This document shows positions 36,328 to 53,690 of a DNA stretch of 64,000 nucleotides, one piece after another. Each line of letters starts with the position of its first letter. The first letter of the stretch is position 1. The stretch is from the NCBI RefSeq assembly GCF_041915465.1, contig NZ_JAYSBK010000004.1, forward strand, positions 13,559 to 77,558, written 5' to 3'. The position numbers and the translations under genes are program-made. Under the pieces are notes generated by a model. It worked only from the letters and a program-made list of their open reading frames with translations, had not been told where the DNA came from and did no database searches. Source of the stretch: Novosphingobium sp. (lineage in GTDB: Bacteria > Pseudomonadota > Alphaproteobacteria > Sphingomonadales > Sphingomonadaceae).

Positions 36328-38784
36328 TTACTCCTTTGGTTGGCCCAATTGGGCGGGGACAATGGGATCGGGGTCTGGGAGCATGTCAGCGGCCCAGCCG
36401 AGGCCGCGATGGCGCAGCCAGGCGGCAGCGAAGCCTGCTGGCCCAAGCGCTTCGGTCAGTTCGGCAATCGCCAGCTGGTCGGTCTTCGACGAGGTGGCGG
36501 TGAAGGCGAGCGCAACTTCGCCCAGTCCCAGCTCGAACAGCCGGTTGCCGCGCGCCGACTGGCAGTAATAGTCGCGCTTGGGGGTCGCCCGTGCGACGAT
36601 CTCGATCTGCCGGTCGTTGAGCCCGAAGCGACGATAGATGCTCAAGATTTGCGGCTCGACTGCGCGCTCATTGGGCAGGAAGATGCGGGTTGGGCAACTT
36701 TCGATGATGGCTGGCGCAATCGCCGAAGTCTCGACGTCAGCAAGGCTTTGGGTCGCAAAGACAACGCTTGCATTCTTCTTGCGCAGCGTCTTCAGCCATT
36801 CGCGCAACTGCGCGGCGAATGCGGGACTGTCGAGCACTAGCCAGCCCTCGTCGATGATGATCATCGTCGGCGAGCCGTCGAGCCTCCCCTCGATCCGGTG
36901 GAACAGGTAGGATAGCACGGCGGGCGCTGCCGCCGATCCGGTCAGGCCTTCGGTCTCGAAGGCCTGGAAGCTGGCTTCGCCCAGATGTTCGACTTCGGCA
37001 TCAAGTAGCCGCCCGAAAGGACCGCCAATGCAATAGGGCGCGAGCGCCTGTTTCAGTGCCTGCGACTGGAGCAGCACCGCAAGGCCGGTCAGCGTGCGCT
37101 CGCCGATTGGTGCAGTTGCAAGCGAAGACAGCGCCGACCAGAGATGCTCCTTGGTGGCAGGATCGACCGTGACGCCCTCGGCGGCCAGGATCGCCTGCAG
37201 CCATTCGGCTGCCCAGTTGCGCTCGGCAGGTTCATTGATCCGTGCCAGCGGCTGCAACAGCACCGCGCCGACACCATCATCGGCCAGACTGGCTCCCAAA
37301 TCCTGCCAGTCGCCGCCGCAGGCGAGAGCGGCCGCCCGGATCGAACCGCCGAAATCAAAGGCGAAAACCTGGGCGCGATCGTAGCGGCGGAACTGCAAGG
37401 CCATCAGCGCGAGCAGCACCGATTTGCCCGCTCCGGTTGGCCCGACGATTAGCGTATGGCCGACATCGCCGACATGGAGCGAAAACCGGAATGGGGTCGA
37501 ACCTTCGGTCCGCGCATAGAAGAGCGGGGCGCTGCGGAAATGCTCATCCCATTCCGGCCCGGCCCACACCGCCGAGAGCGGGATCATGTGGGCAAGATTG
37601 AGCGTGGAGATCGGGGGCTGACGGACATTGGCATAGACATGGCCGGGGAGCGAGCCGAGCCAGGCCTCGACCGAGTTCATACCTTCGGCGATCACGGTGA
37701 AATCGCGGCCCTGGATGATCTTCTCGACGAGGCGCAGCTTCTCGGCGGCAAGCGCAGCGTCCTCGTCCCAGACGGTGACGGTCGCGGTGACATAGGCCTG
37801 GCCGACATGATCGGCGCCCAATTCTTGCAGCGCCGCGTCGGCATCGGCCGCCTTGTTCGAGGCATCGCTATCAACCAGGACCGAAGTCTCGTTGGTCATC
37901 ACCTCCTTGATGATCGCGCCCAACGACTTGCGCTTGGCGAACCATTGCCGCCGGATCTTGCCGAGAAGCTGAGTCGCATCGGTCTTGTCGAGCATCACCG
38001 CGCGGGTCGACCAACGATAGGCGAAGGCGAGCCGATTGAGCTCGTCGAGCAGGCCCGGAAAGGTCGCGCTCGGAAACCCGACCACGGTGAGTGTGCGCAG
38101 ATGCGCACGGCCCAGGCGCGGTTCGAGTCCGCCGGTGAGCGGCTCGTCAGTGAGCAGCGCGTCGAGATGCATCGGCGTTTCGGGCACGCGGACCCGATGG
38201 TTGCGGGTCGAGATGCAACTGTGAAGATAGGTCAGCGTCTCGCTGTCATCGAGCCAGGCGACCTCGGGAACGAAGCCTTCGACTAGGCGCAGCAGCCGGT
38301 CGGTGCGGTCGATGAAGAGGTCGAGCAGCTCCTTCGGGTTGATGCCCTTCTCGGCCTTGCCCTCGTAGAGCCAGCTCTCGGCGCGTGCGGCGTCTTCGGC
38401 GGGCGGCATCCATAGAAGGGTGAGAAAATACCGGCTCTCAAAATGCGCACCTTCCTCGGCGAACTGCGCAGCGCGTTCGCGCTCGACCAGCGCCGAGGCC
38501 GGATCGGGAAAGTCGCTTTCCGGATAGTCCTGCGCTGGGCGGCGCACCGCCTCGACGAAGATTGCCCAACCCGAGCCCAGACGCCGCAGTGCGCTGTTGA
38601 GCCGGGCCGTCGTCGCGATCAGTTCGGCAGGCGTGGCGCTGTCGAGGTCCGGCCCCCGGAAGCGCGCCGAACGCTGGAAGCTACCGTCCTTGTTGAGCAC
38701 GACGCCCGGTGCGACCAGCGCCGCCCAGGGCAGGAAGTCTGCAAGCCGGTCGGCCTTGTCTCTGTATTCGCGAAGCGAGAGCAT
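36328..38784 (-). CDS. trbE: Conjugal transfer ATPase TrbE/VirB4
   Basis: Walker A GPTGAGKS, IIIDEGW and WLKTLRKKN motifs. Confidence 0.96.
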   Translation of the reverse strand: MLSLREYRDKADRLADFLPWAALVAPGVVLNKDGSFQRSARFRGPDLDSATPAELIATTARLNSALRRLGSGWAIFVEAVRRPAQDYPESDFPDPASALVERERAAQFAEEGAHFESRYFLTLLWMPPAEDAARAESWLYEGKAEKGINPKELLDLFIDRTDRLLRLVEGFVPEVAWLDDSETLTYLHSCISTRNHRVRVPETPMHLDALLTDEPLTGGLEPRLGRAHLRTLTVVGFPSATFPGLLDELNRLAFAYRWSTRAVMLDKTDATQLLGKIRRQWFAKRKSLGAIIKEVMTNETSVLVDSDASNKAADADAALQELGADHVGQAYVTATVTVWDEDAALAAEKLRLVEKIIQGRDFTVIAEGMNSVEAWLGSLPGHVYANVRQPPISTLNLAHMIPLSAVWAGPEWDEHFRSAPLFYARTEGSTPFRFSLHVGDVGHTLIVGPTGAGKSVLLALMALQFRRYDRAQVFAFDFGGSIRAAALACGGDWQDLGASLADDGVGAVLLQPLARINEPAERNWAAEWLQAILAAEGVTVDPATKEHLWSALSSLATAPIGERTLTGLAVLLQSQALKQALAPYCIGGPFGRLLDAEVEHLGEASFQAFETEGLTGSAAAPAVLSYLFHRIEGRLDGSPTMIIIDEGWLVLDSPAFAAQLREWLKTLRKKNASVVFATQSLADVETSAIAPAIIESCPTRIFLPNERAVEPQILSIYRRFGLNDRQIEIVARATPKRDYYCQSARGNRLFELGLGEVALAFTATSSKTDQLAIAELTEALGPAGFAAAWLRHRGLGWAADMLPDPDPIVPAQLGQPKE

Positions 38785-38788
38785 TGGC

Positions 38789-39064
38789 TCAGACCCTCAG
38801 ATAGGTTGGAAAGCGCAGATGCCGCCGAGCGACATCGACGAACTGGGGATCGCGCCGCGCCGCCCAGACCGAGACCGCATGGCCAAGCGCGAAGATCACC
38901 ACGCCCGCGATCCACAGCCGCAGGCCCAGCCCGATCGCGGCGGCCAGCGTCGCATTCGCGATCGCAAGGCCCCGCGGTGCGCCGCCGAGCAGGATATGCT
39001 CGGTCAGCGCGCGGTGAACCGGGACGACAAAGCCGGGCACAGCTTCGGGCGGCGCGGTTTCCAT
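38789..39064 (-). CDS. trbD: Conjugal transfer protein TrbD/VirB3
   Basis: VPVHRALTEHILLGGAPR..DPQF motif. Confidence 0.92.
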   Translation of the reverse strand: METAPPEAVPGFVVPVHRALTEHILLGGAPRGLAIANATLAAAIGLGLRLWIAGVVIFALGHAVSVWAARRDPQFVDVARRHLRFPTYLRV

Positions 39065-39396
39065 CAGACGAGCGCTCCGCCGCCGAACGAGAAGAACGAC
39101 AGGAAGAAGGACGAGGCGGCGAAGGCGATCGACAGGCCGAACACGATCTGGATCATCCGGCGCGCACCGCCCGAGGTGTCGCCGAACGCGAGCGCAAGGC
39201 CGGTGGCGATGATGATCATGACCGCGACGATCTTGGCGACCGGTCCCTGGATCGATTCGAGGATCGACTGGAGCGGCGCTTCCCACGGCATTGACGAACC
39301 CGCCGCATGGGCGGGCGTCGCCACGGAAAGGGCAATGAAGCCGCCGAGCATGGCAGCGGACAGGCGGTCACGGGCGCGCGAAATGGTCTGGAACAC
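39064..39396 (-). CDS. trbC: Pilin TrbC/VirB2
   Basis: AGSSMPWEAPLQSILESIQGPVAK..LAFGD motif; GTG start inferred. Confidence 0.92.
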   Translation of the reverse strand: MFQTISRARDRLSAAMLGGFIALSVATPAHAAGSSMPWEAPLQSILESIQGPVAKIVAVMIIIATGLALAFGDTSGGARRMIQIVFGLSIAFAASSFFLSFFSFGGGALV

Positions 39397-39400
39397 GAGT

Positions 39401-40378
39401 TCAATCTCCTTGGGCTTGGGGGGTGACGGGAAGGATGCGGTAGTCGCCTCGGCTATCGAGCCCGGTGACCTCGGCGAGTTCGGCGAGCCGCCGCCCGGTT
39501 CCGTCGCGGACCAGCACGGCGATGACGTCGATGGTCTCGGCAATGAGCGCGCGCGGCACGGTCACCACGCTTTCCTGGATCAGCTGTTCCATGCGCCGCA
39601 GGGTGCCGAGCGCTGATCCGGCATGGATCGTTCCAACCCCGCCGGGATGGCCGGTGCCCCAGGCTTTGAGCAGGTCGAGCGCTTCAGCGCCGCGCACCTC
39701 GCCGATGGGGATACGGTCGGGCCGCAGGCGCAGGGCGGAGCGGACCAGGTCGGAGAGGGTGGCAACGCCGTCCTTGGTGCGCAGCGATACGAGGTTAGGT
39801 GCGGCGCATTGCAGCTCGCGGGTATCCTCGATCAGGACCACCCGGTCGTCGGTCTTGGCAACTTCGGCGAGCAGCGCGTTGGTTAGTGTGGTCTTGCCGG
39901 TCGATGTGCCGCCGGCGACCAGAATGTTCTTGCGGCCCGCAACCGCGCGGGCCAGCGCGTCAGCCTGCCAACGATCCATGATCCCTGCGGCGACGTAGTC
40001 GGCGAGCGCGAACACCGCTACGGCGGGCTTACGGATGGCGAAGCTGGGCGCGGCCACGACCGGCGGCAACAGCCCCTCGAACCGCTCCCCCGTCTCGGGT
40101 AGCTCGGCCGAAACCCGCGGGGCTTTGGCATGGACCTCGGTCCCAACATGGTGCGCGACCAGGCGGATGATCCGCTCGCCATCGGCGGCGGACATTCCGC
40201 TCCCCGTATCGGCGATCCCGGTTCCCAGCCGGTCGATCCACAGCCGCCCGTCGGGATTGAGCATGACCTCGATGACCGAGGCGTCTTCAAGCCAGGCGGC
40301 AATCTCCGGCCCGAGCGCCGTGCGCAGCATACGCGCGCCGCGCGATGATGCTTGGCTTTGGATCGGGATGACGCTCAT
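39401..40378 (-). CDS. trbB: Conjugal transfer ATPase TrbB/VirB11
   Basis: [23 protein letters not shown] and WGTGHPGG motifs. Confidence 0.96.
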
Positions 40379-40665
40379 GAAATGCCTCGTGTGCGCGGAG
40401 CAACCGACCATCGGCTGCGCTCGCGAGGCAGATCAAAAGGGCATCAGAATGGGGGAATGCAACAGCTTGTTGCGGTCAGGGTAGTGTGGCGAAATGGGAG
40501 AAACGGACGGCGACGCTGTGAACTACCCAATGGTAGGTCCCGCCTGAACAGCAGCCATCGTGAAGCCGTTCGTATATCCCCGTTACCTGTCATAGGTTGA
40601 CGCTTGCGCTGCTAGGGATTGGAGTAGACTTACGGGCGCGGACGCCTCGCATTTGCGCAGGCGCG

Positions 40666-43656
40666 TCAATGCTTGGTCTCGGGCCCACCCCATTCCCGTT
40701 TCATCTGCTCGAGTTCACGTTCTGCAATCCGCTGTTCCCATGCCATAGACTGCACCGCCGAGCGCGCCTGGGTTCTGGCGAACGCGGCAACCTTTTCGCG
40801 AGGGTCGTTGATCCAGGCTTGAAGGCGTCCGTGCTGTTCGACCTCAGCCTCGACCCGGCCGAACTGCCCCGTGACCACGCCCGTCTCGCCGAGTACGGCG
40901 ATGACCCGCCCCAGCATGTCGTCGCCCTGCTCAAGACGGTCGACGACGTCCATGCAGACGGCGTAAACCTCTTCGGCACCTTCATAGGGCTGTAGCGTCG
41001 AGAGCACGAACGAAAGGTCGTCGCGATCGCCGTTCGCGACGAAACGTCTCAGAGGATCTGCAATTTCCGGTATGAGCTGGGGGAAGATGTTTGCCACCAG
41101 CTTGCCGCCGAGGAAACGGTGGAGCGAAGGCTTCAGGCCGTACATGCGGCGCGCGGATCGCAGCAGCGTCTCGGGATGGCGCGACAACGGCCGCGGAAGT
41201 TCGTGGAGCCTGAACGGAACGGCGTCGAAGTAGCCACCGTCGCCGCGTCCGCGACCGATCCGGAACTCGAAGAATTCGAGCACCTGCACTGGAAAATTAT
41301 CAGCCGTCCGAGCAAGCGCATACTCGGCATTATGGTCTATCTTGGGCAGCTCGAGAAAAGACACCAAGAAGGCCGCGGTCTGGGCCTCATCCAAGGCCGC
41401 CACCATGCCGCTGTGGGACACCCACCATGCATTGACGATCCAGCCAGGCTGGCGCGCATCAGTAAACGAAGCGACTGCCGGCATCAGCACGTCGGCGATG
41501 AGTGATGGATCACCCTTCTTTTTGAAAGCCTGACCCGCAGCATTGACGAGCGCCAGTACTCCATCGTGCTCGCCAAGCTCACGCGCTCGCATCGAAAGGG
41601 AAGAAAGGCGCTCGGATCCATCACCGTCGCGCTCGCCGAGCCACGCGGCCATTTCCTGGAAGTATCGTCCCTGTCCCGAAAAGCGCGCCACTGCTAGATC
41701 AATGGCGTCGAGCCGCCCTGCAGCCTCGAGGCCGTGGAGCAGCGGCGTCAGTATGAGGCGGAGTGCATCGTCCATCTGATAAAGCAGGTGAACTGCTATA
41801 TCGGGTCTCGTCTCGGCAAGGTGGCGCGAAAAGCCCGACAAGGGAAGCCAATCCCCGATCCCGATCGGCTCTGCAAGATATCGACGCACCAACGCAGTCC
41901 AGGCCTCGGCGCCATCCGTGTCGATCTGCGCGACGATCGCGGGAAAGCCTTCCTCCCGCCACTTCTGCAAGCGCTCGGGGTCAAAATGCTCGGCGTCCCA
42001 CGCATCTGGGTGCACCGAATCGTGCCCTATTAGCGTCTTGTAGAGGATGAAATCCGGATCGGCGTTGAGCGTATCCCTGAGAGCCAGCAGTTCGCCCACG
42101 ATGGCCGTCTGCGCTCCGACCAATTCAGCGTTCGCAACCATGTCTTCGGGCAGTACGTGATACCAGGAATGCACATGGATGGCGTCTACCTCTATCTGCC
42201 TGCGTATCTCCAGGCGGCATTGCGGTGCCAATACGCGCTGGATCGCGGCGACCCGCGCTGCATCGTTCATAACGAGGACCCGAACCGCCTCGCTACCGCC
42301 ATAGTAAGGCGGTCGGCTCGCCTCGCGCAGCGCCGACAATATCTCGCCGCGTTCCTGATCGTCGGCCGAGACAGCAAGCAGGCTCTCGAGCAACCCGATC
42401 GCGTCGGAGCGAACCTGGCGGACGGCATCGGACGCGTTGACCGAGCCCTTGGCAATCTGGAACGTGTGAAAGTCGCCGCGGCTGATTCCGCCGACTTCTG
42501 ACGAAAGCACCTGCTGCATCATTGTGACGACGAGCTCGCGCGCGGCGGTCAAAGCATCAGTGCCGAGAGCGGCGAACACGTTTAGGATGAGGCGCTGAAC
42601 CGCAGGGCCATGTGTCCGCCATGTCCCGACGTCGTTCTCCGCCAAGCGTCGGCCAAGATCAAGCCAGAGGCGCCTTTCCTCGCCTTCCGATCGGCTGAAC
42701 AGGCGGATAAGCGCGTCGAGCGTGCGCGTCGGATCATAAAGCGAGTGGTGCTCGATGACTGGCGCCACCTTGCGCGCGACATCTAACCCATTCTCCCCGT
42801 CGAAAGTGCCGCTCGGATCGACGATCGGCTCCGCCGGCGATCTCCGGGTTCGCTCCACGACGTCGATCAGCACCGGCAGCTGTTCCAGGAAGCGGTCGCC
42901 TCTGTTCTCGAGGCGGGGGAGGACGACGTCGCTCAGCGTGTCCAGGGCCGCCGATAGGGCATTGTTGCTCTTCGAGGTCGAGATCGCCTCGATACACGGC
43001 TCGAAGTTTTGATCGGCCTGAATCAAGAGGGCAAAGTCGCGCGCGATCATGTCGAAGTCGTGCCCTGCGGGGAGCAGATGTTCGCGCATTACAGCGTCCA
43101 TCCGCTCCTTGATGCGTTCAAGCTGCTGCTTGTCCACATGCTTAAGGTCGGGCTCCTTGTAGATGGTGTCGTGACCCATCTCGGCCCAAGCATGCTTGAG
43201 CAGGGTCTGGACTTGGATTTCGATCTTGAGACCCGCGAACGGGCGATATTCCGCGAGAGCGGTTCGGTCGGGCTTGAGCTGGGCGGTATAGTTGGTGCTG
43301 TCGAACAGCCGAGTCTCTGTCTCTGTGCCAGGCACCGGGTGGTGCACGTTCACGTTCGAGACCTCAAAATTCTCGTGAATGATGCCTGATGCCAGGAAGC
43401 GCTCGACCTGCGTATTGGTCAGGAAGACGAGGCGAACGCCGGCCAAATCCCTGAGCTGCTCGTTGATCGCGGTGTCGAGCGAGATGCCGTGCTTCTCGAG
43501 CTTCTTCCTCAAGGATACCGCATCCTTCGCTCGCCCCGTGATGGCATGCGGCGTCATCGCATTCGCTTTGACGGCTCCCGCCAGGATCTGGCGGACCGCT
43601 TCGACAAATTCCGCGTAGAGGGCGCGTCCGCCGAGCTGATATTCCTCGAACGTCAC
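40666..43656 (-). CDS. 996-aa protein with N-terminal RelA/SpoT-type synthetase domain and long helical C-terminal region
   Basis: GRAK..S, DLAGVR, EIQVQT and HAWAEMGHDTIYK motifs in the first 170 aa; GTG start with GGAGG RBS overlapping the upstream stop. Confidence 0.85.
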   Translation of the reverse strand: MTFEEYQLGGRALYAEFVEAVRQILAGAVKANAMTPHAITGRAKDAVSLRKKLEKHGISLDTAINEQLRDLAGVRLVFLTNTQVERFLASGIIHENFEVSNVNVHHPVPGTETETRLFDSTNYTAQLKPDRTALAEYRPFAGLKIEIQVQTLLKHAWAEMGHDTIYKEPDLKHVDKQQLERIKERMDAVMREHLLPAGHDFDMIARDFALLIQADQNFEPCIEAISTSKSNNALSAALDTLSDVVLPRLENRGDRFLEQLPVLIDVVERTRRSPAEPIVDPSGTFDGENGLDVARKVAPVIEHHSLYDPTRTLDALIRLFSRSEGEERRLWLDLGRRLAENDVGTWRTHGPAVQRLILNVFAALGTDALTAARELVVTMMQQVLSSEVGGISRGDFHTFQIAKGSVNASDAVRQVRSDAIGLLESLLAVSADDQERGEILSALREASRPPYYGGSEAVRVLVMNDAARVAAIQRVLAPQCRLEIRRQIEVDAIHVHSWYHVLPEDMVANAELVGAQTAIVGELLALRDTLNADPDFILYKTLIGHDSVHPDAWDAEHFDPERLQKWREEGFPAIVAQIDTDGAEAWTALVRRYLAEPIGIGDWLPLSGFSRHLAETRPDIAVHLLYQMDDALRLILTPLLHGLEAAGRLDAIDLAVARFSGQGRYFQEMAAWLGERDGDGSERLSSLSMRARELGEHDGVLALVNAAGQAFKKKGDPSLIADVLMPAVASFTDARQPGWIVNAWWVSHSGMVAALDEAQTAAFLVSFLELPKIDHNAEYALARTADNFPVQVLEFFEFRIGRGRGDGGYFDAVPFRLHELPRPLSRHPETLLRSARRMYGLKPSLHRFLGGKLVANIFPQLIPEIADPLRRFVANGDRDDLSFVLSTLQPYEGAEEVYAVCMDVVDRLEQGDDMLGRVIAVLGETGVVTGQFGRVEAEVEQHGRLQAWINDPREKVAAFARTQARSAVQSMAWEQRIAERELEQMKREWGGPETKH

Positions 43657-44912
43657 GCAGCGCCTCCGCCTATGTAAATGGGCTCGTAAAGAGCGCCGGA
43701 CTCGTCACCCGTCCAAGTTTCCCCGCTAAAGCCGGTGGACCCGTCCTCGAAGCCGCTTGCGAGCCATAGCGCGTCCAGCATTCGCCGCAGCGCACCTGGC
43801 TGCACGGCATCAGATGAGGGAAGGTCGACCATACCGAGTTCGAGCCCGGGAATCCGGAGCATACGACTCGTAGTGCGAGCGCCCCTGATCTTCACATCCT
43901 GGAGATCATGCACGCTGGCCTCTAACGAAACAGGGCCTGAGGCACCGAGTTCCTTCAGCAGCGCTGCCAGTCGGCGCGCAGTCTCTACAATCGTTCCTTC
44001 CAAACGCCGCCCGTCGACAACGATATCAGGATCGTCCTGGATTCTAGCACCCACCGTGAGCGAGGCTTCGAGGCAACCCGGCTCAACGAGCCTTGTATAC
44101 CAACGGGCTTCGGGATTGAGCCCATCACTCCGCTGTTTGACAGGATCGTAGCTGGCCCATTGCCCGAGGCTCGTGATCGCCTCGGCACGCTCATAGGCTT
44201 CAGGCACGAAATGCAACTTCAGCTTCTTGATCGCTACGGGGTCAAGGTAGGCCACGGGCTTTGCAGGTGCCATCCGCATCACAAGTCTAGGGCCAGGAAC
44301 GATCGCCGGCACATCACCGCGACCCGTACGATTCCGGAGATCGGCTATCATTTCATGGGCAGCGCGCATTGCATCGGGCTGGACAGCGCCAGCCGCGCGC
44401 TTGGCCAGCGCATGGTCTATTGATGCAGCGAGATAGTCTTCCATCTTTTTAGCGAAGACCCCGCGTACCTTGCGCCGCTCGCCATCGGAAGCGCCTTCCG
44501 CAAGTCGCCACGATGCTGGGTGACGCAAATGGGCGAGGTCGAAGGGAAGCGCCGTAGGCTCCCCGAAAGCGGTGTTCATCACCAGGATGATCTGCTCGTC
44601 ATCCAGCAACGCGCGTGCGTACCCATATTCGGTCAAGACGTTCGGATTCGGCACCAGTTTCCCACCGCTTGTTTCGGCAACAAACGAGACATCGCCAACG
44701 AAGACCGCGCAGCGTCGGATCTTGCGAAGAATTGTCTCGCTGACAGGGGGCGTACCGGCGACACCGGCCGTATCGGAGTCGAGCATTAGGTCGAAGGGAA
44801 ACCGGCTCTGGATTGCCCCGATCGCTTCGTTGAGCGCGATGCGGCCGAATCGCCGGCAGACGTCGTCGTCACGATCGCTCTGCCATGAATAAAAGATACG
44901 AATCTCGTCCAA
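43653..44912 (-). CDS. TIR-like/nucleotide-binding domain protein with C-terminal domain of unknown function
   Basis: IFYSWQSD..FVGDVS..PNPNVLTEYGYA..IILVMN..LPFDL flavodoxin-like signature; TTG start at 44912 inferred. Confidence 0.7.
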   Translation of the reverse strand: MDEIRIFYSWQSDRDDDVCRRFGRIALNEAIGAIQSRFPFDLMLDSDTAGVAGTPPVSETILRKIRRCAVFVGDVSFVAETSGGKLVPNPNVLTEYGYARALLDDEQIILVMNTAFGEPTALPFDLAHLRHPASWRLAEGASDGERRKVRGVFAKKMEDYLAASIDHALAKRAAGAVQPDAMRAAHEMIADLRNRTGRGDVPAIVPGPRLVMRMAPAKPVAYLDPVAIKKLKLHFVPEAYERAEAITSLGQWASYDPVKQRSDGLNPEARWYTRLVEPGCLEASLTVGARIQDDPDIVVDGRRLEGTIVETARRLAALLKELGASGPVSLEASVHDLQDVKIRGARTTSRMLRIPGLELGMVDLPSSDAVQPGALRRMLDALWLASGFEDGSTGFSGETWTGDESGALYEPIYIGGGAA

Positions 44913-45108
44913 ATACCTACACCTCTCATTCGATCCTGCGATGATAGGATTGTCACCCGCAAGCACGCAGCGATCGGTATCTTGCCAGATCGGAAGGAGT
45001 TTTCCTGCGCTTTCTATGCACTCGTGTACGCATGTGGGACCGTAGTGCTCATAATCACGGAATTTCAACGCGATTTTGGCATAATGTTTGGCCACGCTCG
45101 CACGCGCG

Positions 45109-46557
45109 TTAGCGCGACAAATCGCTGGGGCGTGCGAGGCCTCCTTGGAGCAGGCAGGTAACAACATAAATCGGACTCGTACCGGTCTCGACCGGGATGA
45201 TCGTCAATCCGTCCGTCACAGGAAACGGAGGGGTTGATTTCACGCTGCAATCCAGCACGCACAACAAGGCGACACGACGGCCGCTTCCAACCGCGTAGCT
45301 CGCCGCTTGCCCGGCAAACTGCTTACAATCGTCCGGTAGGAGACGCTTCGATTGCTCGGATTTAAGCTCGATCCTTATACCCCTGAACGTCAGGTCGACC
45401 TTGCCTCCGGTGACCTGTCCCTGAACCTCAAGCTCACTGCCAATGGCGGCGTTGGCACGCAGGAATGACTGAAAATCGGCTTGGAAAGCGGCTTCATCGA
45501 TGGGCTTGGGATAGCGTTTGTCCTGGACCGCTTGTCCCATCAGATTGCCGACTGGGGTGAGAAGCGCCAAGAGGTCGCAAATATCCGTCTCCGAGATTAG
45601 CGGTTCGAGCCGCAACCGCTCGCGTAACTGAACGATCTTCGCGTCCAGTTCGCCATAACCGGTAAGCGGATGGCGCGACGTGTCGGTCCCATCGAGGCGC
45701 AACGTTCGCTGTCCCGCGACGACGACAGTTTCGTCGCGTTCGAGCCGAGGCTGAAACTCGGCCGCGTAGCGAAATTCGAGCGGTCGCGCGTTGAAGCCCT
45801 GTGACGCATGCAGCGCCATCCGGCCCTGGCGCTGAAATGTGAAGGGCGCGGGTCCGTCAGGGCGGGGAAATTCGAAGGTCGGGAAATCCCATGTGCTTGT
45901 CGGCTCGATTGAAACCGGCGCAATAACCAATCGCTCGGCGTCGTCGGGCCAGCGCGAAACACGGATAGTCAGATCGAGATCGTGAACCTGCCCCGCTGAA
46001 AGACTGTGGCATGTCTCGGCGGGTTTGCCGTCAATAGAAAATTCCAGAAACGCGACGGCAATCTCGTCCGGTTTCACGGGCAGGTCGTCTGCGGCAGGCG
46101 GGCCGAACCCGCCGCGATCCTCGATACCGAAAATTGCGACGGGCATTTCAAGCTCCGCTATCGCGGCGCCGAGAATTGGCACAGCGTCGACGTCGAGCTC
46201 GCCGTCAATGGGCGCGAGGGCCGTGACGAGCGCCACAGCATAGGCACCATGGGCATCGTCGCTAGCGAGACTGCGATAGCGGAGCCGGGCGGCGCGCAGG
46301 AACCGATCAGCGTCGACTGCGGCTATATGGACGGCTTCGCTCCAGTCGGCGAGCAGGCCGAGGATTTCGAGCGCGGCGGCGAAGGTTCGCCAATCCTTCG
46401 CGGCCTCCGCCTTGCCATAGAGCTCGGCCGCTGCCGCAACCGCTTCGGCCCGCGCACGCAACTCGGCGCCCCCGGCATAGCGCGGCTGTGCTGTGACCGC
46501 TTCGATCGCAGCGACCCTAGAAGGGAAGGTTTGAGCGAGCACGACGTTCACGCTCAT
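45109..46557 (-). CDS. Hypothetical protein with C-terminal PD-(D/E)XK nuclease-like domain
   Basis: DEAAFQADF..GGKVDLTF.GIRIELKSE..QAASYA fits the E..D..ExK..QxxxY restriction-like nuclease motif; beta-rich middle region. Confidence 0.65.
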   Translation of the reverse strand: MSVNVVLAQTFPSRVAAIEAVTAQPRYAGGAELRARAEAVAAAAELYGKAEAAKDWRTFAAALEILGLLADWSEAVHIAAVDADRFLRAARLRYRSLASDDAHGAYAVALVTALAPIDGELDVDAVPILGAAIAELEMPVAIFGIEDRGGFGPPAADDLPVKPDEIAVAFLEFSIDGKPAETCHSLSAGQVHDLDLTIRVSRWPDDAERLVIAPVSIEPTSTWDFPTFEFPRPDGPAPFTFQRQGRMALHASQGFNARPLEFRYAAEFQPRLERDETVVVAGQRTLRLDGTDTSRHPLTGYGELDAKIVQLRERLRLEPLISETDICDLLALLTPVGNLMGQAVQDKRYPKPIDEAAFQADFQSFLRANAAIGSELEVQGQVTGGKVDLTFRGIRIELKSEQSKRLLPDDCKQFAGQAASYAVGSGRRVALLCVLDCSVKSTPPFPVTDGLTIIPVETGTSPIYVVTCLLQGGLARPSDLSR

Positions 46558-49123
46558 CCTCCTTATCCCGTGCGTCCGCTGCAGCGGCTTGCGCCCAAGC
46601 GCGGCCGGCCGCCTCGATCGCGTCGAGGTCCCGCGCGGCAACCGCCGCTTCGAAACGGAGCGCGAGCTGCGGCCATTGCAGCAGCGTGCGCCGCCTGCGC
46701 AGCCGCACCGAATCGCCGTTGCTGCTCACCAGGGCAGTCACAAGCGCGTCCGCCTGTTGTGTCATTCCTGCAGCCAGAAATGCGTCGACGACGCCCAGCG
46801 CGGTTTGCAGCTCGATGTCGAGAACCGAGATCGCAGCGTCGTGAAAGGCTTGCGCGTTGGCCTCCAGCCCTTCCGGGCTTACCTTGTGCAGGAGGTTGAG
46901 TGCTTTATCCGAGTTATTGTAGCGGTCCGCCAGATGGGGGATCATGCGCGCGGCTAGCGTGGCAAATTCAGGCTCTGTACCAAGGCTGTAAGAGAGGGAC
47001 AGGATGTCGGATCGCAGGAAGAGCGGGTCGACATCCATCGCGACCTCGATCAGATAGCGCCTGACCGCGCCGCTCGCGTTTCCGAACAGATCGGCCATCC
47101 CGGCGAGGATACGCACGCATTTCGCTAGAAAATGATCCTCGTTGGACTGGACTCGATAATAACGGATCAGGTTCAAAATGGCGTGAGCCGCGTTGACCCG
47201 GTAGGGTTCGGGAAGGATCGACCGGTGAAAGGCTTCAACGGCGGTTTTGTGAACCGCAACATATTGGTCCCACAGCAGTGCGCCGAACGCCTCAAACAGA
47301 AGGTCGGGAACATTAGCCCGACTACGATAAGGGAGTTCACCGACTGCCGTCGCTGCATAAGAGCGACCAAGCACCGACGGTCCGACAAGGGCGGCGTAGA
47401 GATGGGGTAAAAGCTGTTTCAGCCCCGCCAAGTCACGCGAAAGCTCCTTCGTCGCTCCCAATAGGGCACCTCGAAGATTGTCGCGTCCTTCCGGAATCGT
47501 CTCGAACATGCCGATGATTTTCGCCACCGACGGTTCGTCGCCGGCGGCGCCCTCACTCGCCCATTCGACCAACTGCTCCATCAGGCCGCGCATCACCGAG
47601 CGGCGGGTATTTCGTTCGATTGCGACCAGCGTGTTCTCAGCCGGCTCGGTCATCGCCACGTCAAGCTCAGCCAGTCGATCGTCGAGTAGGAACAGAGCAC
47701 CGATGAAGGCCTCGAGCTGTGCGCGAACCACATGCTCCAGCCCTTTCGAACCGGCGCGAAAGGCCGAGGTGACCTCCTCGAGGACCCTGTCATCATGTTC
47801 GATCGTCGGCGCCCAAACGAGCCGGGTCAGCGCGAGCGCGTGCCGATTGGAGGTCGCCGGGACGGAGGGCTTGTCATAGCCCACATGGACGGCAAGCGCA
47901 TAAACTTTCAGGATCCGGGCGCGATGCGATGCGGGCGCCCCCTCGTTCAGCGCTTGGAGCTGCGCGTCGACATCCTCCGGCGCGGCATCGAAAGCATCGT
48001 TCAGCGCCTCGGCGAGATCGGGCAACCGATCATCCTCATCCTTCAGATCGGCGACAAGGCTGGGCGCGCGGACATAGACCGATGTCAAGGTGAGAAGAAT
48101 CGGGGCCGCCGCCTTCGGGTCCTCAGCGTGCAAGACATGGAGACCTCGACCGGCGCGTTCGAGGGAGGACCGCTTTCCGCTCAGCAACATCTGTTCGATG
48201 GCCGCGATGACGGCCGCGGGAAATCGGGAATAGAGCGCGTAAAGGAATGCGGGATCGCGCGGAATCCTGGGCTCGTCATCACCGTAGAAAAATTCTCGAT
48301 CGTCTGGGTCGGCGAGATCGATGGCGGTAGTAAGAATGGACGCGACGCGATCGGGGGAGACGGCGTCGAGACGCGGAAGCAGCTTTTCCACGGCAATGCG
48401 TGCAGGATAGCCGCGACGCAGGACAGTCATCGCCAGCTCGACGATCATGCCATCCTCGGCGCCAACCGCATCGAGAATGACAAGTGCGGCCTCAGCGAAC
48501 CAAGGCTGACTGCCAGCCAGCGCGAAGACATATTGGACCAGCTCGGGCGTGAAATGCTCGGGAGCCAAGCGCGCACTTTGCGTCACGCGTTCGAAATTTT
48601 CTTTTGACCGATCGGCGTCGAACCCGCCGATGTCCTCCAGCAAGGTGCGTGCGATGGGGCCAAGTGTGGGCAACAATCCTGCACGGATTCCCTTGCGTTC
48701 CTCGAGAGCTTGCGCCGCAAGGCGCGCCTCGGTCTCCGCCCGGGCTTCGAGGACAGCTTTCTCACGATCGCGATCAGCAATGATCTCCATGAGGTTCGGC
48801 AACCTAAGAGGCTTGCGATGACCGCAATTCGCGCAATTTCGATCATAGAATTCGACGATGGCGTCCCGCAGATCCCAGCATGCCATGCCGCCCTCGGGTG
48901 CATGGTCGCAGCGCATGCCATGATGGCCGATCGGAAGACCGGTCATCTGCTCGATCATCCCCGTTCCGCCGAACTTCTCCACGCGGGCGTGCGCGCAGTA
49001 ATTGCGGACAAGCGCCATGGTGTCGCGATTACGCTCCCCGGCTTTGATGGTGTCTGCAATGTCGCGCATCTGCCCCGTCGAAATCGTTCCGTGGGATATC
49101 GGTTCGACAGGGCTCGTCTTCAA
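46517..49123 (-). CDS. Large hypothetical protein: Cys/His-rich N-terminus, coiled coil and HEAT-like helical repeats
   Basis: 868-aa open frame with CAH..CDH..C..CANC cluster and Leu/Ala-rich amphipathic helices; start may be ATG 49069. Confidence 0.65.
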   Translation of the reverse strand: MKTSPVEPISHGTISTGQMRDIADTIKAGERNRDTMALVRNYCAHARVEKFGGTGMIEQMTGLPIGHHGMRCDHAPEGGMACWDLRDAIVEFYDRNCANCGHRKPLRLPNLMEIIADRDREKAVLEARAETEARLAAQALEERKGIRAGLLPTLGPIARTLLEDIGGFDADRSKENFERVTQSARLAPEHFTPELVQYVFALAGSQPWFAEAALVILDAVGAEDGMIVELAMTVLRRGYPARIAVEKLLPRLDAVSPDRVASILTTAIDLADPDDREFFYGDDEPRIPRDPAFLYALYSRFPAAVIAAIEQMLLSGKRSSLERAGRGLHVLHAEDPKAAAPILLTLTSVYVRAPSLVADLKDEDDRLPDLAEALNDAFDAAPEDVDAQLQALNEGAPASHRARILKVYALAVHVGYDKPSVPATSNRHALALTRLVWAPTIEHDDRVLEEVTSAFRAGSKGLEHVVRAQLEAFIGALFLLDDRLAELDVAMTEPAENTLVAIERNTRRSVMRGLMEQLVEWASEGAAGDEPSVAKIIGMFETIPEGRDNLRGALLGATKELSRDLAGLKQLLPHLYAALVGPSVLGRSYAATAVGELPYRSRANVPDLLFEAFGALLWDQYVAVHKTAVEAFHRSILPEPYRVNAAHAILNLIRYYRVQSNEDHFLAKCVRILAGMADLFGNASGAVRRYLIEVAMDVDPLFLRSDILSLSYSLGTEPEFATLAARMIPHLADRYNNSDKALNLLHKVSPEGLEANAQAFHDAAISVLDIELQTALGVVDAFLAAGMTQQADALVTALVSSNGDSVRLRRRRTLLQWPQLALRFEAAVAARDLDAIEAAGRAWAQAAAADARDKEDERERRARSNLPF

Positions 49124-49255: not shown

Positions 49256-49669
49256 TTATCTCCCCTTTCGGCCCATTTCCTCAAACACCCCTTTTCCATT
49301 CTCCAATTTCCGCGCCAACGCCTCGACAAAGCCCTCGTAGCGTTCCCTGCCTTGGGCCTGCGCCGCCGCCATCGCGGATTCCGGTAACGGCGGGTTGGCA
49401 GTGAGCCAGAACCTCACGAACAGCGCCAGAGCCTCATTCGTCACCTCGATCTGAAACTCCAGCCGCTCGTTCTGCTTGGTCAGCCGGTCAAGGCGCCTTG
49501 TGACGGCCGCCTCCATGCGCTCAGAGCCATCGGGCGAAAGGAACGAGGCAATGGCGGCCTCGACAATCGACGCCTGCGTCGCGCGCTTGCGGATCGCGAA
49601 CTCCGCAAGTTGCCGGGAGATGTCCGGCGGTAGACGGAACGTGTGCTTGATGCGGTTGCCGGATTTCAT
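49256..49669 (-). CDS. CopG/ribbon-helix-helix protein of the ICE backbone
   Basis: SIVEAAIASFLSPD..TRRLDRL..EALALFVRFWLT motif; GTG/ATG start overlaps the traG stop. Confidence 0.85.
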   Translation of the reverse strand: MKSGNRIKHTFRLPPDISRQLAEFAIRKRATQASIVEAAIASFLSPDGSERMEAAVTRRLDRLTKQNERLEFQIEVTNEALALFVRFWLTANPPLPESAMAAAQAQGRERYEGFVEALARKLENGKGVFEEMGRKGR

Positions 49670-51660
49670 AGCGCGATCCCATCATCGGGATCGAGGGAGG
49701 CGCGGCGGGCGTTGCCGCGCATCCGCTCCTGCAGGCGTTGGTTGCGCGCGGCATCGTCATCGCCTTGCTCGTCGCGGTCGAAATCGAATTCCCTAGCGAC
49801 CGGCTTAGGCGACGGCGCGATGTCCTCATGGATCGGCAATTCGGGTTCGGTCCGTATCCCAGCATTCTCCGGGTCGGTATCGGGCTGGTCTTTGGGGGTC
49901 GTCCTGCGCTTCGAAGCCGCAGGCGTCCTGGCAATCATGTCCTGCCAATCGTGGGGCGATGCTGCTGCCTTGCCGGCAGCACTGACCTTGGGCGACGAAA
50001 TTACCCGTGCGGCAAGTCGCCTGTCCCGATAATATTGCGCCTTCTTCGCCCGGATCGGATGGGTGCCGGCCATCATCACGATCTCGTCAGTCACAGGCAG
50101 TTCCTGGATTTCGCCAGGAGTAAGGAGCGCGCGGGCGGTTTCCGACTTCGAAATCATCAGGTGGCCCAGCCAGGGCGACAGCCGGTGGCCGGCATAGTTC
50201 TTCATGGCGCGAAGCTCGGTTGCCGTGCCCAGCGATTCCGACACCCGCTTGGCTGTACGCTCGTCGTTGGTCGCAAAACACACCCGGACATGGCAATTGT
50301 CGAGGATCGCGTTGTTCTGACCGTAGGCGTGCTCGATCTGATTGAGGGACTGGGCGATCAGAAAGGCCTTCATCCCGTACCCGGCCATGAACGCCAAAGC
50401 GCTTTCGAAAAAGTCGAGCCGTCCGAGGGCCGGGAACTCATCGAGCATGATCAGCACGCGCTGGCGCTTGGCATCGGGTGCCAGTTCCTCGGTCAGCCGC
50501 CTTCCGAGCTGGTTGAGCAGCAGCCGGATGAGCGGCTTGGTCCGGCTGATGTCGGATGGCGGAATGACGAGATAGAGGGTGGCTGGCCGCTTGGCGTCGA
50601 TGAGATCGGCGATCCGCCAGTCGCACCGGCGCGTCACCTGTGCCACCACCGGATCGCGGTAGAGACCGAGGAACGACATAGCGGTGGAAAGCACACCGGA
50701 TCGTTCATTTTCGGACTTGTTGAGCAGCTCGCGCGCAGCGCTCGCGACCACCGGATGGACACCGCCTTCGCCAAGATGCGGGGTCATCATCATCGCGGCG
50801 AGCGTCGATTCGAACGAGCGCTTGGGATCGGAAAGGAAGGCCGCGACCCCGGCGAGCGTCTTGTCGGGCTCGGCGTAGAGAACGTGGAGGATTGCGCCGA
50901 CCAGCAGCGAATGGCTGGTCTTCTCCCAGTGGTTGCGCTTCTCGAGACTGCCTTCGGGGTCGACCAGTACGTCGGCGACATTCTGGACATCGCGCACCTC
51001 GCAAACGCCGCGCCGCACTTCGAGCAGCGGGTTGTAGGCAGCGGATGCGGAATTGGTCGGGTCGAACAGCAGCACGCGGCTGAACGAAGAGCGGTAGCCC
51101 GCGGTCAGTGTCCAGTTCTCGCCCTTGATGTCATGGACGATGGCCGAGCCCGGCCAGGTGAGCAGGGTCGGGATGACGAGGCCGACTCCCTTGCCGCTGC
51201 GGGTCGGCGCAAAGCAGAGGACATGCTCGGGACCATCATGGCGCAGATACTCGTTGTTGAATTGCCCCAGCACGACACCCTTGTCGTCGAAGAGGCCAGC
51301 GGCCTTGATTTCCTGCCGGTCGGCCCAGCGTGCGGTGCCATAGGTGGCAGCCGTCTTCATTTCGCGAGCCCGCCAGACCGACATGCCGAAGGCGACGACG
51401 ATGGACGTAAAACCGCCCGACGCCGCGATCATCCCGCCGGTGTCGAACACCTTCGGCGCATAGGCATCATAGCTGAACCACCAGCAGAAGAAGTCATAGG
51501 GCCGATAGACCGGCCAACCCAGCAGCATGAACCAGGGGCGGCCGAGTTCGGGCTGGTAGCCAAGCGCTGCAGCAGTCCACTGCGTTGCGGACCAGATCCC
51601 GGTCAACACGAGCAGGAAGACGGCGAGGATCTGTCCCCAGAGGATCTTGATCGCGGCCAT
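49666..51660 (-). CDS. traG: Type IV coupling protein TraG/VirD4
   Basis: APTRSGKGVG, DIKGENW and MLDEFPALG motifs. Confidence 0.95.
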   Translation of the reverse strand: MAAIKILWGQILAVFLLVLTGIWSATQWTAAALGYQPELGRPWFMLLGWPVYRPYDFFCWWFSYDAYAPKVFDTGGMIAASGGFTSIVVAFGMSVWRAREMKTAATYGTARWADRQEIKAAGLFDDKGVVLGQFNNEYLRHDGPEHVLCFAPTRSGKGVGLVIPTLLTWPGSAIVHDIKGENWTLTAGYRSSFSRVLLFDPTNSASAAYNPLLEVRRGVCEVRDVQNVADVLVDPEGSLEKRNHWEKTSHSLLVGAILHVLYAEPDKTLAGVAAFLSDPKRSFESTLAAMMMTPHLGEGGVHPVVASAARELLNKSENERSGVLSTAMSFLGLYRDPVVAQVTRRCDWRIADLIDAKRPATLYLVIPPSDISRTKPLIRLLLNQLGRRLTEELAPDAKRQRVLIMLDEFPALGRLDFFESALAFMAGYGMKAFLIAQSLNQIEHAYGQNNAILDNCHVRVCFATNDERTAKRVSESLGTATELRAMKNYAGHRLSPWLGHLMISKSETARALLTPGEIQELPVTDEIVMMAGTHPIRAKKAQYYRDRRLAARVISSPKVSAAGKAAASPHDWQDMIARTPAASKRRTTPKDQPDTDPENAGIRTEPELPIHEDIAPSPKPVAREFDFDRDEQGDDDAARNQRLQERMRGNARRASLDPDDGIAL

Positions 51661-51782
51661 CTCATTCTCCTTCCGGCTATGTCCAATCGCGGTCGGCGCA
51701 AGTGCGCAAGGTCGGGAAGCCTGCCGGCGCAACCTGGCGAAGAACGACGAGGGCTGGCGAAGGGGCGAGGCGGAACCATCAC

Positions 51783-53537
51783 CTACAACCCCAGCGTGCG
51801 GCTGCGGGTGAAGCTCCAGTCGACTCCGCCGCGCGCATTGATCGTCCCGGCAACCGCCTGCCCCAGATGCCGTTCAAGACTGGGGCGCCATGGCACGAGC
51901 TGGAACCCCGTTCCATCGTCGATCATAGCAAAGCGGCCCGAGGACAGCGTGACGCGTTCCCTGTAGATACCCGCCAGATGGTCGCCGGGTTGTGCGGGCC
52001 TATGGTCCAGCCCCGTTTGCGCGGCAACGGACCTGGCGGTGCCGGCCAGCTCTCGGCTGCGCAGTTCATTGAGCAGGTCTTTGGCAAACACGAACCGCTG
52101 GCCCTGCCGCCGCGCCAGACCTTCGGCTGCCAGATGCTCCGACCGCGCCGCAAGCGCATCGCGCACTTCCGTGCCGAACCCACCGGCGGTCTCGACGGGT
52201 TCGCGGGAAACGAGCTGGCGGTCCAGCCAGGTCGCGCCGGGGGCATGGATCTGCTCGGCAAGCGACAGGTCCGAACGGACAGACAGTGACTGCCGCTCGT
52301 TCCCGTGGGTATCGCGCCACTGGCCAAGCTCGACAATGGCGCCGGGTTTGGCATCGCTCGTCTGGTCGATATCGTCGAACCGGAGATAGTGGGTTCGTCC
52401 ATCGGTCCCATCGACCACGGCATAGGCGCTGCCGCTGAGCTCATCGTGAAGACCGCGCTCGACCAGGCGTCCGATCACGGGATCGGCGGCAAGCCCCTCG
52501 TACAGCGCAAAGCGTCCGGTGTCGGGCCGATGTCCCCCTGCACTCATCGCGCGGTGCATGGTCTTGATGATGTCGCCGCGGATCGAGAGGTCGCGCAATG
52601 TATCCTCAAGGCCGGGCCTCAAGGTCCAGCAGGCGGGGCCGACACGCTCGGCCAGGCCCAGGCGCTCCAGCTTGGCGGCGCGGCCGAGCAAATGATTGTG
52701 GTCGGCGCGGTCATAGCCCGATGGACTGGGGCGCAGGTCGACCACGCCGACTCCTGAGCCTGTCGAAGGATCGTCGGCCAGGCGTTGTAGCGAGCGGTCG
52801 AGACCGGTCCAGCGTTCCGCATCGACCTCGCGGGCCATGGCCCGGGCGATCTCCCGCTCGCTGCGCCGCCCCAGTTCGATGGTGGCCCGCTCCTCGGCGC
52901 GCGATCGGAGCCCCGCGCGAATATAATCGCGGTCGATGACGATGTCCTTGCCGTCCTCGGCGCGGCCCCGGACGAGCACATGGACGTGGGGATTGTTGGT
53001 GTTCCAGTGATCGACGGCCACCCAGTCGAGCCGGGTGTCGAGATCATGGGCCATGTCGTCCATCAGCTCGCGGGTGAAAGTCCGGATGTCTTCGAGTTCG
53101 GCGGCATCCTCGGGCGAGACGATAAAGCGGAAGTGGTGGCGATCCTCTTCGCAGCGCCCGGCGAAGGCATCTCCATCGGCCGCGTCGGACCGGGCATCGA
53201 ATAGCCCTGCGTCCTTGCCGTCGCGGGTGACGCCATCGCGCTTGAGATAGGCGATGTGCCGCGCCAACGGTGCCGCCCGGAAGCGCGCGCCTTTGTGCCG
53301 GACCACGCGCGCTTTGACGATGACGCGCCGATTGGCCCCACAGGACCGTGCCGCAAGTCCGGCTCGCCGCCCGCGCGCCGTCCGCCCCGTCCCGGAATTA
53401 CGCGATCGTGCAGGCCGGTGCCCGCCTTTCATCGAATGGCTGACGACCTGGCCTATGAAGGATTGCGCTCGTCGACCGCTGCCACTGCCCCGGCTGCGCC
53501 CCTTGCCGGGCCGGATATGGAAATCGTCTTCGCTCAT
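51783..53537 (-). CDS. rlxS: VirD2-like relaxase (DUF3363, RlxS)
   Basis: HIAYLKRDGV, HHFRFIVSPED and HWNTNNPHVHVLVRG HUH motif. Confidence 0.93.
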   Translation of the reverse strand: MSEDDFHIRPGKGRSRGSGSGRRAQSFIGQVVSHSMKGGHRPARSRNSGTGRTARGRRAGLAARSCGANRRVIVKARVVRHKGARFRAAPLARHIAYLKRDGVTRDGKDAGLFDARSDAADGDAFAGRCEEDRHHFRFIVSPEDAAELEDIRTFTRELMDDMAHDLDTRLDWVAVDHWNTNNPHVHVLVRGRAEDGKDIVIDRDYIRAGLRSRAEERATIELGRRSEREIARAMAREVDAERWTGLDRSLQRLADDPSTGSGVGVVDLRPSPSGYDRADHNHLLGRAAKLERLGLAERVGPACWTLRPGLEDTLRDLSIRGDIIKTMHRAMSAGGHRPDTGRFALYEGLAADPVIGRLVERGLHDELSGSAYAVVDGTDGRTHYLRFDDIDQTSDAKPGAIVELGQWRDTHGNERQSLSVRSDLSLAEQIHAPGATWLDRQLVSREPVETAGGFGTEVRDALAARSEHLAAEGLARRQGQRFVFAKDLLNELRSRELAGTARSVAAQTGLDHRPAQPGDHLAGIYRERVTLSSGRFAMIDDGTGFQLVPWRPSLERHLGQAVAGTINARGGVDWSFTRSRTLGL

Positions 53538-53690
53538 CGCGACCGGGTCGCGGATCTGAGCCCGCCAGCAGAAGACGGCGCATTTTGCTCTGAAAATATT
53601 GTAGAAATTGAAGGGGGAGCCAGCAGGCTGTTTCGAGCGACGGCTGTCGAAGCCGAGCAATTCCGAGCCTCACCATCCACACCGACGGCG

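Follow-up and report, generated by a model that had tools for sequence, protein, structure and literature searches.

CapRel, DSR2 and Avs are single-protein immune sensors, in which recognition of an invader is coupled directly to a toxic enzyme. DSR2 (defence-associated sirtuin 2) is a protein of about 1000 amino acids (aa), with an enzymatic SIR2 NADase head and a HEAT-like sensor tail. More generally, sensor-effector immune systems can usually be recognised by a large conserved module to which exchangeable toxic enzymes are joined. We analysed a gene of Novosphingobium sp. that is located at positions 40666 to 43656, on the minus strand, of a 64,000-nucleotide stretch of contig NZ_JAYSBK010000004.1. 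This whole stretch is referred to below as the window, and all the features of the window that we describe lie on the same strand. The gene encodes a 996-aa fusion protein with a RelA/SpoT-type head followed by a long alpha-solenoid tail. The evidence leans, modestly, towards a defence module in which one protein is both sensor and effector, as in CapRel or DSR2.

Several described systems share part of this layout. CapRel likewise combines an N-terminal RelA/SpoT-type pyrophosphokinase with a C-terminal regulatory or sensor part, and is found on mobile elements (PMC9712102, PMC11782079). However, CapRel-SJ46 (PDB 7ZTB) is about 350 aa long and carries a small pseudo-zinc-finger sensor with a YXXY plug, whereas the fusion protein has an 800-aa alpha-solenoid instead. 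No CapRel-type C-terminal pseudo-zinc finger with a YXXY plug was found in the structure model or by Foldseek. The Foldseek match to 7ztb reached a target template-modelling (TM) score of 0.35-0.39, so that it extends over no more than the CapRel head. The head of the fusion protein also resembles the alarmone-making RelP/RelQ more closely than the tRNA-targeting CapRel and FaRel2. DSR2 is similar in size and layout, being likewise the product of one gene with a toxic-enzyme head of ~200 aa and a long tail of helical repeats, but its head is a SIR2 NADase whereas that of the fusion protein has the RelA/SpoT fold. DSR2 showed no sequence likeness in the PDB profile search and was not among the 50 Foldseek matches listed.

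In the case of Tde-SAS, a small alarmone synthetase (SAS) of Treponema denticola with a tetratricopeptide repeat (TPR) tail (DsRel SAS-TPR), the tail inhibits the SAS head (PMC10434055). As in the fusion protein, a RelP/RelQ-like SAS head is followed by a helical-repeat domain. However, Tde-SAS is 410 aa long, has four TPR motifs and canonical Syn motifs, and is the alarmone source of its organism. The fusion protein, in contrast, is 996 aa long, has a HEAT/ARM solenoid and an altered acceptor pocket, and is accessory and mobile, being encoded beside a long RelA/SpoT homologue (RSH). No TPR match was found in it with Pfam, and its layout is thus not that of DsRel SAS-TPR. RelP and RelQ (PDB 6EWZ, 6FGK, 5DEC) were the best matches in both sequence and fold, and their ATP-Mg donor site maps one-to-one onto that of the fusion protein (with K55 opposite R91). 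They differ in having no tail, in keeping the G-loop Tyr and His as well as the Arg of EIQIRT, and in being core genes of Firmicutes. Finally, Pag1B/GRel of PANGU type I is an alarmone-making (pppGpp) toxic SAS (toxSAS) used in defence (bioRxiv 10.64898/2026.04.06.716658). Pag1B would thus be comparable to the fusion protein in using a toxSAS-type head as defence effector. It works with a separately encoded nucleoid-associated partner and has a small acidic C-terminal domain, whereas the fusion gene has no conserved partner. Indeed, all-versus-all clustering of the neighbours (5594 open reading frames (ORFs) from 81 loci) did not reveal any partner or antitoxin gene conserved in the 81 loci, and yielded only antisense shadow ORFs inside the gene itself.

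The fusion ORF is a real, intact gene and not a chance reading frame, since it has 116 full-length homologues (27-92% identity) and its ratio of nonsynonymous to synonymous substitution rates (dN/dS) against a 92% identical twin, on contig L013, is 0.15 overall (0.11 in the head and 0.34 in residues 411-700, from this one pair). According to the ORF list and its translation, the gene runs from a GTG start codon at 43656-43654 to a stop codon at 40666-40668. A Shine-Dalgarno-like GGAGG is found at 43663-43667, 6 nt 5' of the GTG, and the start position of the protein is the same in the homologues. The tetranucleotide GTGA (43653-43656) contains both this start codon and the TGA with which the TIR-like gene upstream ends, so that the two overlap. 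This overlap is confined to the window and to the 92% twin, the gene having its own intergenic region upstream at the other loci.

An earlier reading, made from the sequence only, had described the product as a 996-aa RelA/SpoT synthetase fusion devoid of hydrolase, TGS and ACT domains, and both statements proved correct. PF04607 (RelA_SpoT) was the sole Pfam domain detected, at residues 41-168 (41 bits for a cut-off of 27, E 2.7e-10). Neither Pfam nor NCBIfam revealed an HD hydrolase, TGS or ACT domain, and the protein does not have the layout of a long RSH. The SAS and RSH matches obtained with NCBIfam were all below threshold. A canonical long RSH is encoded on another contig of the same genome (724-aa frame, Pfam E 8e-43).

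The head was assigned to residues 1-170 (43147-43656), which correspond to a SAS-type, RelP/RelQ-like nucleotidyl/pyrophosphotransferase domain according to Pfam, PDB profile search and Foldseek. The profile search of the PDB with the fusion protein gave RelP/RelQ matches with E values down to 5e-10. A structure model of the full-length protein was produced with AlphaFold2 from a 37-sequence family alignment, and a second model was made for residues 1-420. When the full-length model was compared to the PDB with Foldseek, the head matched RelP/RelQ at target-normalised TM scores of 0.66-0.70. The 1-420 model, with a predicted local distance difference test score (pLDDT) of 91.2, again had RelP/RelQ as best matches (E about 1e-6, target-normalised TM 0.6-0.72), followed by weaker matches to CapRel 7ztb (1e-5), an exported Streptomyces SAS, FaRel (2e-3), FaRel2 (0.03) and long RSHs. 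The RSH-like fold expected from the letters alone was thus recovered by structure prediction. The Pfam score above threshold, the fold and the donor residues described below all agree, indicating that the head belongs to the RSH superfamily as a SAS-type synthetase domain.

In order to locate the donor site, roles were transferred through a hidden Markov model (HMM) alignment to S. aureus RelP (SaRelP), whose residues have been described in detail (PMC5794853, PMC7983052). The RxK, DxxGxR and HxWAExxHxxxYK motifs that had been recognised by eye in the N-terminal domain were all present. The first, R42-A-K44 (Syn1; 43525-43533), is family-invariant and corresponds to R78/K80 of SaRelP, which serve in ATP adenine stacking and phosphate binding. 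The second, D70-LAGV-R75 (43432-43449), provides the Mg-binding Asp, equivalent to D107 of RelP, and the second adenine-stacking Arg, equivalent to R112. The third is carried by a helix, H155-AWAEMGHDTIYK-167 (43156-43194), in which H162 corresponds to the ribose-contacting His190 of RelP. Between the second and the third lies the strand E146-IQVQ-T151 (43204-43221), with the catalytic Glu (E174 in RelP) and with Gln150 where EIQIRT has Arg. In this alignment the adenine sandwich is formed by R42 and R75 (opposite R78 and R112), the phosphate contacts by K44, S48, K52 and K55 (opposite K80, S84, K88 and R91), the Mg site by D70 and E146 (opposite D107 and E174) and the ribose contact by H162 (opposite H190). 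Eight of these nine donor ATP/Mg residues, all except K55, were invariant or at least 90% conserved among the 37 sequences, which are 26-56% identical to the window protein. The head was also the best conserved part of the protein, with a mean pairwise identity of 52% compared to 34-37% elsewhere. As judged from these alignments, the donor side of the head is complete and would bind ATP-Mg as the pyrophosphate donor.

The acceptor side is different. In the profile alignment to RelP/RelQ, LFDSTN lies opposite GYRSLH and EIQVQT opposite EIQIRT. The G-loop F118-D-S-T-N122 (43291-43305) therefore occupies the place of the canonical Y-x-S-x-H, with Phe for the base-stacking Tyr and Asn for the His, and the window protein lacks the canonical pocket formed by the Tyr of GYxSxH and the Arg of EIQIRT. 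The modelled G-loop has a low pLDDT (56-64). Both non-canonical motifs noticed beforehand, L117-FDSTNY-123 and EIQVQT, are thus present, but only the second turned out to be a trait of the whole family. The Phe and Asn of the G-loop are confined to the window's clade, distant members reading RYRAVHY or LYISNHY in the same columns. In contrast, E146, Q148, Q150 and T151 are invariant across the 37-sequence alignment, Q150 replacing the Arg in every member. In the AlphaFold2 model E146, Q148 and Q150 occupy alternate positions of a single beta-strand (145-151), so that their side chains should face one and the same cleft. The positive patch at the acceptor site is described as larger in alarmone synthetases than in toxSAS enzymes that target tRNA (PMC11782079), and the loss of Arg and His would shrink such a patch. 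A smaller patch is only suggestive as to the substrate, the role of the EIQIRT Arg being itself inferred. The proximity of the head to RelP/RelQ tilts the choice slightly, and only weakly, towards a nucleotide acceptor in preference to tRNA.

These substitutions raise the question of whether the head could be a pseudo-enzyme, which would have lost its pyrophosphokinase activity through the Tyr-to-Phe and Arg-to-Gln changes and now serve as an ATP-binding or scaffolding module. The Tyr-to-Phe change in the G-loop is the one used by experimenters to cripple FaRel2, PhRel2 and FaRel, and is a standard catalytically impaired substitution in toxSAS work (PMC11782079). The Gln that replaces the Arg of EIQIRT is found in 37 of the 37 aligned members, as would also suit a family that had lost activity. 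However, apart from K55, all the residues in contact with ATP, including the catalytic Asp and Glu, have been kept as described above, and the head, besides being the most conserved part of the protein, evolves under purifying selection (dN/dS 0.11). Moreover, relatives with Tyr and relatives with Phe in the G-loop are alike in all other features. We consequently regard loss of activity, which the sequence-only reading had left open, as quite improbable.

The remainder of the protein is helical, as had been supposed for its ~800 C-terminal residues. The full-length AlphaFold2 model has a mean pLDDT of 88.6 and a predicted TM score (pTM) of 0.71. A long helix (residues 176-227) leads from the head into helical repeats, and the alpha-solenoid is continuous from about residue 410 to residue 989. 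We distinguish a first part, residues 171-410 (42427-43146), made of linker helices, helical repeats and two small beta-hairpins in the models, from the HEAT/ARM-type solenoid proper, residues 411-996 (40669-42426), a putative sensor or regulatory module delimited from Foldseek, the conservation profile and the profile search. When compared to the PDB with Foldseek, the tail matched CAND1, the importin-beta family, MMS19 and PP2A-A, while the middle region of the 1-420 model matched only designed ARM repeats, and weakly. Conserved blocks are found around residues 521-560 and 921-960. With an alpha-solenoid tail and without HD, TGS or ACT domains, the architecture is indeed unlike that of long RSH, short SAS and CapRel proteins. 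A likeness of residues 213-329 to HeLo/HET-s domains appeared in profile searches (E 1e-4, and 2e-3 with a sub-alignment). No such domain was among the 50 Foldseek matches listed for the 1-420 model, and we attribute this signal to helical-composition noise.

We then searched for relatives of the tail. A profile of the C-terminal 790 residues was compared exhaustively to 1.84 billion representatives and matched 1809 clusters at E<=1e-3, of which 967 at E<=1e-30. Most of the top matches were proteins of about 1000 aa with a RelA_SpoT head, but about 16 of the top 150 were headless relatives of roughly 800 aa. In three of the four headless loci that we looked up, a gene encoding a PIN_12 protein (PF16289, about 330 aa) abuts or overlaps the start of the solenoid gene, directly upstream of it (L097 2344-5756, L099 4976-8418 and L102 2029-5419). 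Conserved solenoid blocks, such as TGVVxGEFG near the C-terminus, are kept in these PIN-partnered proteins. PADLOC did not identify the pairs, apart from one weak OloA match to a headless relative (2e-4), and one of the three loci adjoins a Type III restriction-modification system, a PDC-S32-like gene and an MNT/MazE pair. The two-gene unit is a candidate for an unnamed defence pair. At the fourth headless locus, the 292-aa partner resembles the PIN_12 proteins in its C-terminal ~90 aa only (BLASTP 8e-4), which hints at a common adaptor carried by different effectors. No region resembling the linker between head and solenoid could be found in the PIN_12 partner (hhalign probability 0.3%). The occurrence of a headless solenoid with a separate PIN_12 gene in place of the fused head shows effector swapping.

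Other arrangements were also observed. At locus L103 (5444-8454) a 190-aa RelA_SpoT gene overlaps by 16 nt the start of an 817-aa solenoid gene, and this member of the family could represent either a natural split or a frameshift. A search with the head alone for other architectures (548-1743 aa) returned only relatives of about 1000 aa or fragments. One match to the tail profile, P0245 (1108 aa), carries an N-terminal HTH_3 domain and a degenerate head, with EVQVYS where the family has EIQVQT.

The distribution of the family was examined by a pattern scan with one genome per species. Relatives were found in 172 species scattered among Alpha-, Beta-, Gamma- and Deltaproteobacteria and Nitrospirota. 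Among 300 other species of the taxonomic family to which the window belongs, only four contained a relative of the fusion (50, 33, 32 and 33% identity), and none was detected in the four other species of the same genus. Such a patchy occurrence at 32-50% identity indicates horizontal spread. The genomic contexts varied from one locus to another. In Labrenzia the fusion gene is isolated, at two chromosomal sites that are unrelated to each other. It adjoins an AAA_15/OLD-like ATPase in Aquidulcibacter, lies within an integrative and conjugative element (ICE) in a Sedimenticola symbiont and, in many Sphingomonadaceae, is flanked by imuB/dnaE2 on one side and czc genes on the other.

The neighbours of 44 diverse loci were also scanned against Pfam and PADLOC. 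They were heterogeneous and included strong defence matches. In raw numbers, five of ten large immediate neighbours were defence-related. The defence neighbours comprised a SIR2-APAZ protein of the type associated with prokaryotic Argonautes (pAgo), a DrmD-like helicase, PifA, an OLD/AriA-like ATPase and a Type I methylase. Since housekeeping genes (purH, purL, tsf, dus and metE, for example) surround the gene at many loci, the association with defence genes is no more than suggestive. The gene shows generic traits of defence systems in that it is accessory, has spread horizontally and is found in mobile elements or defence islands.

These data also bear on a physiological role. The protein might be a regulated alarmone synthetase, a large analogue of DsRel SAS-TPR in which the tail would adjust the synthesis of (p)ppGpp or (p)ppApp in response to a signal from the cell or from the element, for example in stress tolerance or ICE maintenance. 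The head is closest to RelP/RelQ in both sequence and structure, Tde-SAS is a proven case of a helical-repeat tail acting as a brake (PMC10434055), the guanosine-binding loop has its canonical Tyr and His in distant members of the family, and housekeeping neighbours are found at many loci. However, an extremely patchy distribution with only 32-50% identity within one bacterial family, and location in ICEs, integrase islands and next to defence genes, are not what such a role would predict, and the genome already contains a canonical long RSH. In addition, the solenoid is also found with an RNase-type PIN_12 protein as its partner instead of the synthetase, which is hard to reconcile with a nucleotide-signalling role of the tail. 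We consider this explanation rather unlikely.

The one-protein defence module thus remains the explanation that we favour, on the precedents of the Tde-SAS TPR brake, CapRel and Pag1B/GRel. According to this scheme, the solenoid would keep the head inactive until a trigger, most likely a component of a phage or of another invader, binds the solenoid or changes its assembly. Once freed, the head would take pyrophosphate from ATP and place it on the 3'-OH of an acceptor. This acceptor could be a purine nucleotide, resulting in (pp)pGpp or (pp)pApp and in a drain of ATP, or alternatively the CCA end of tRNA. Growth would stop and the infection would be aborted. Autoinhibition, trigger, product and toxicity are all inferred here. 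It had been put forward from the sequence that the C-terminus may be an autoinhibitory phage sensor, and a regulatory or sensory role of this part fits the comparative evidence, namely a stand-alone gene, a patchy spread, mobile and defence neighbours, and headless solenoids paired with PIN_12 proteins.

Several observations nevertheless weigh against this scheme. The Phe of the G-loop in the window's clade is the very change introduced to cripple FaRel2, PhRel2 and FaRel (PMC11782079). Both profile search and Foldseek place the head nearest to the housekeeping RelP/RelQ and not to known toxic SAS enzymes, and many loci lie among the housekeeping genes listed above. Our literature search found no paper on a RelA/SpoT-HEAT fusion or on PDC-S33, the PADLOC candidate system whose profile matches the head. 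The latter match is partial, positions 41-175 of this 349-position profile being aligned with head residues 11-158 (E 1.2e-9).

More tentatively, the solenoid may define a large superfamily of immune sensors, so far without a name, which comprises at least 1809 clusters (at 50% identity) and has interchangeable effectors, either a SAS head in cis or an upstream PIN_12-type protein. As part of the same proposal, the SAS head, with its invariant Gln and its Phe or Tyr in the G-loop, may differ in acceptor or product both from (p)ppGpp synthetases and from tRNA-targeting toxSAS enzymes. If the family does consist of single-protein immune sensors, a giant solenoid would represent a third mode of control for a RelA/SpoT-type toxin, besides the zinc-finger-like plug and the partner protein. 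It would also be a new sensor scaffold, serving in some cases a pyrophosphokinase that acts on nucleotides or tRNA and in others a PIN nuclease. With its natural changes, the acceptor pocket lends itself to the study of how alarmone synthetases select their substrate. This family is large, unnamed and uncharacterised in the literature searched; its toxSAS-type head is of a known kind whereas the solenoid sensor is novel. It is also common (close to a thousand strong clusters) and annotated only as 'RelA/SpoT domain-containing protein', so that its members could be mistaken for stringent-response genes.

In the window, the fusion gene is the last of four tightly packed genes on the same strand, inserted between the IncP-type TraG/RlxS relaxase genes and TrbB/TrbE. 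These belong to a conjugative-transfer backbone (TrbE, TrbB, IncP-type TraG and an RlxS-like relaxase; 36328-40411 and 49666-53660), indicating that the four-gene block is cargo of a conjugative element. Its G+C content is 0.59-0.63, compared to 0.64-0.68 in the flanks. In the ICE of the window, the interval from traG to trbB serves as a landing site for defence genes. Upstream of the fusion gene lies the gene for the TIR-like protein (43653-45167; 458-504 aa), which has an N-terminal 'FYSWQSD' motif and, as its sole family match, a weak one to CAP12-PCTIR_TIR (E 0.04), and which is probably an independent single-gene module.

The two other genes of the block form an Olokun-like pair (45109-49123). 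PADLOC recognised OloA (1e-54) in an 850/868-aa HEAT-type protein and OloB (5e-39) in an overlapping ~480-aa protein. In Olokun, OloA is adaptin-like and OloB is a PD-(D/E)XK protein (bioRxiv 10.1101/2025.07.10.664194). In the OloA-like family the N-terminus is Cys/His-rich and invariant (C54, C79, C82 and others). Olokun shares with the fusion protein the logic of a large helical-repeat protein associated with a toxic effector, but in the fusion protein the effector is fused, and is a SAS rather than a nuclease. The fusion protein gave no match to the OloA model and, with no OloA-family solenoid beside an OloB partner and no conserved neighbours, it does not belong to Olokun. Homology between its solenoid and the neighbouring OloA-like protein was considered and is not supported, BLASTP returning nothing and hhalign a probability of 1.8%.

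This arrangement could suggest that the fusion gene is the fourth part of a single defence cassette (OloA-like protein, PD-(D/E)XK nuclease, TIR-like protein and fusion protein) that works only as a whole. The genes are indeed tightly packed on one strand, with a GTGA start/stop overlap, and no internal promoter was predicted, our promoter and terminator scan of the region revealing nothing above the shuffled-sequence background. The same four genes also occur together in the 92% twin L013. However, this twin is the only other contig in which they do so, and the three neighbours do not recur in the 80 other loci. The fusion gene is alone in the contigs of Labrenzia, Sphingomonadaceae, Aquidulcibacter and Sedimenticola, an OloA/OloB-like pair is present in Shinella without the TIR-like or fusion gene, and, as mentioned above, the fusion solenoid and the OloA-like family have no detectable homology. 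A cassette of four interdependent genes is therefore very improbable. With no neighbour shared across loci and the OloA/OloB-like pair found on its own, the block in the window reads, from gene content, as three independent modules and not as a single cassette.

At locus L010, a homologue 54% identical to the fusion protein is encoded in an integrase island, and none of the genes around it there is related to the neighbours in the window. Directly upstream of this homologue (L010 2196-7948), a 1156-aa protein in which a protein kinase is fused to a superfamily 1 (SF1) helicase (AAA_11/AAA_12) is encoded together with two unannotated genes of 458 and 278 aa. This kinase-helicase group may be another defence module.

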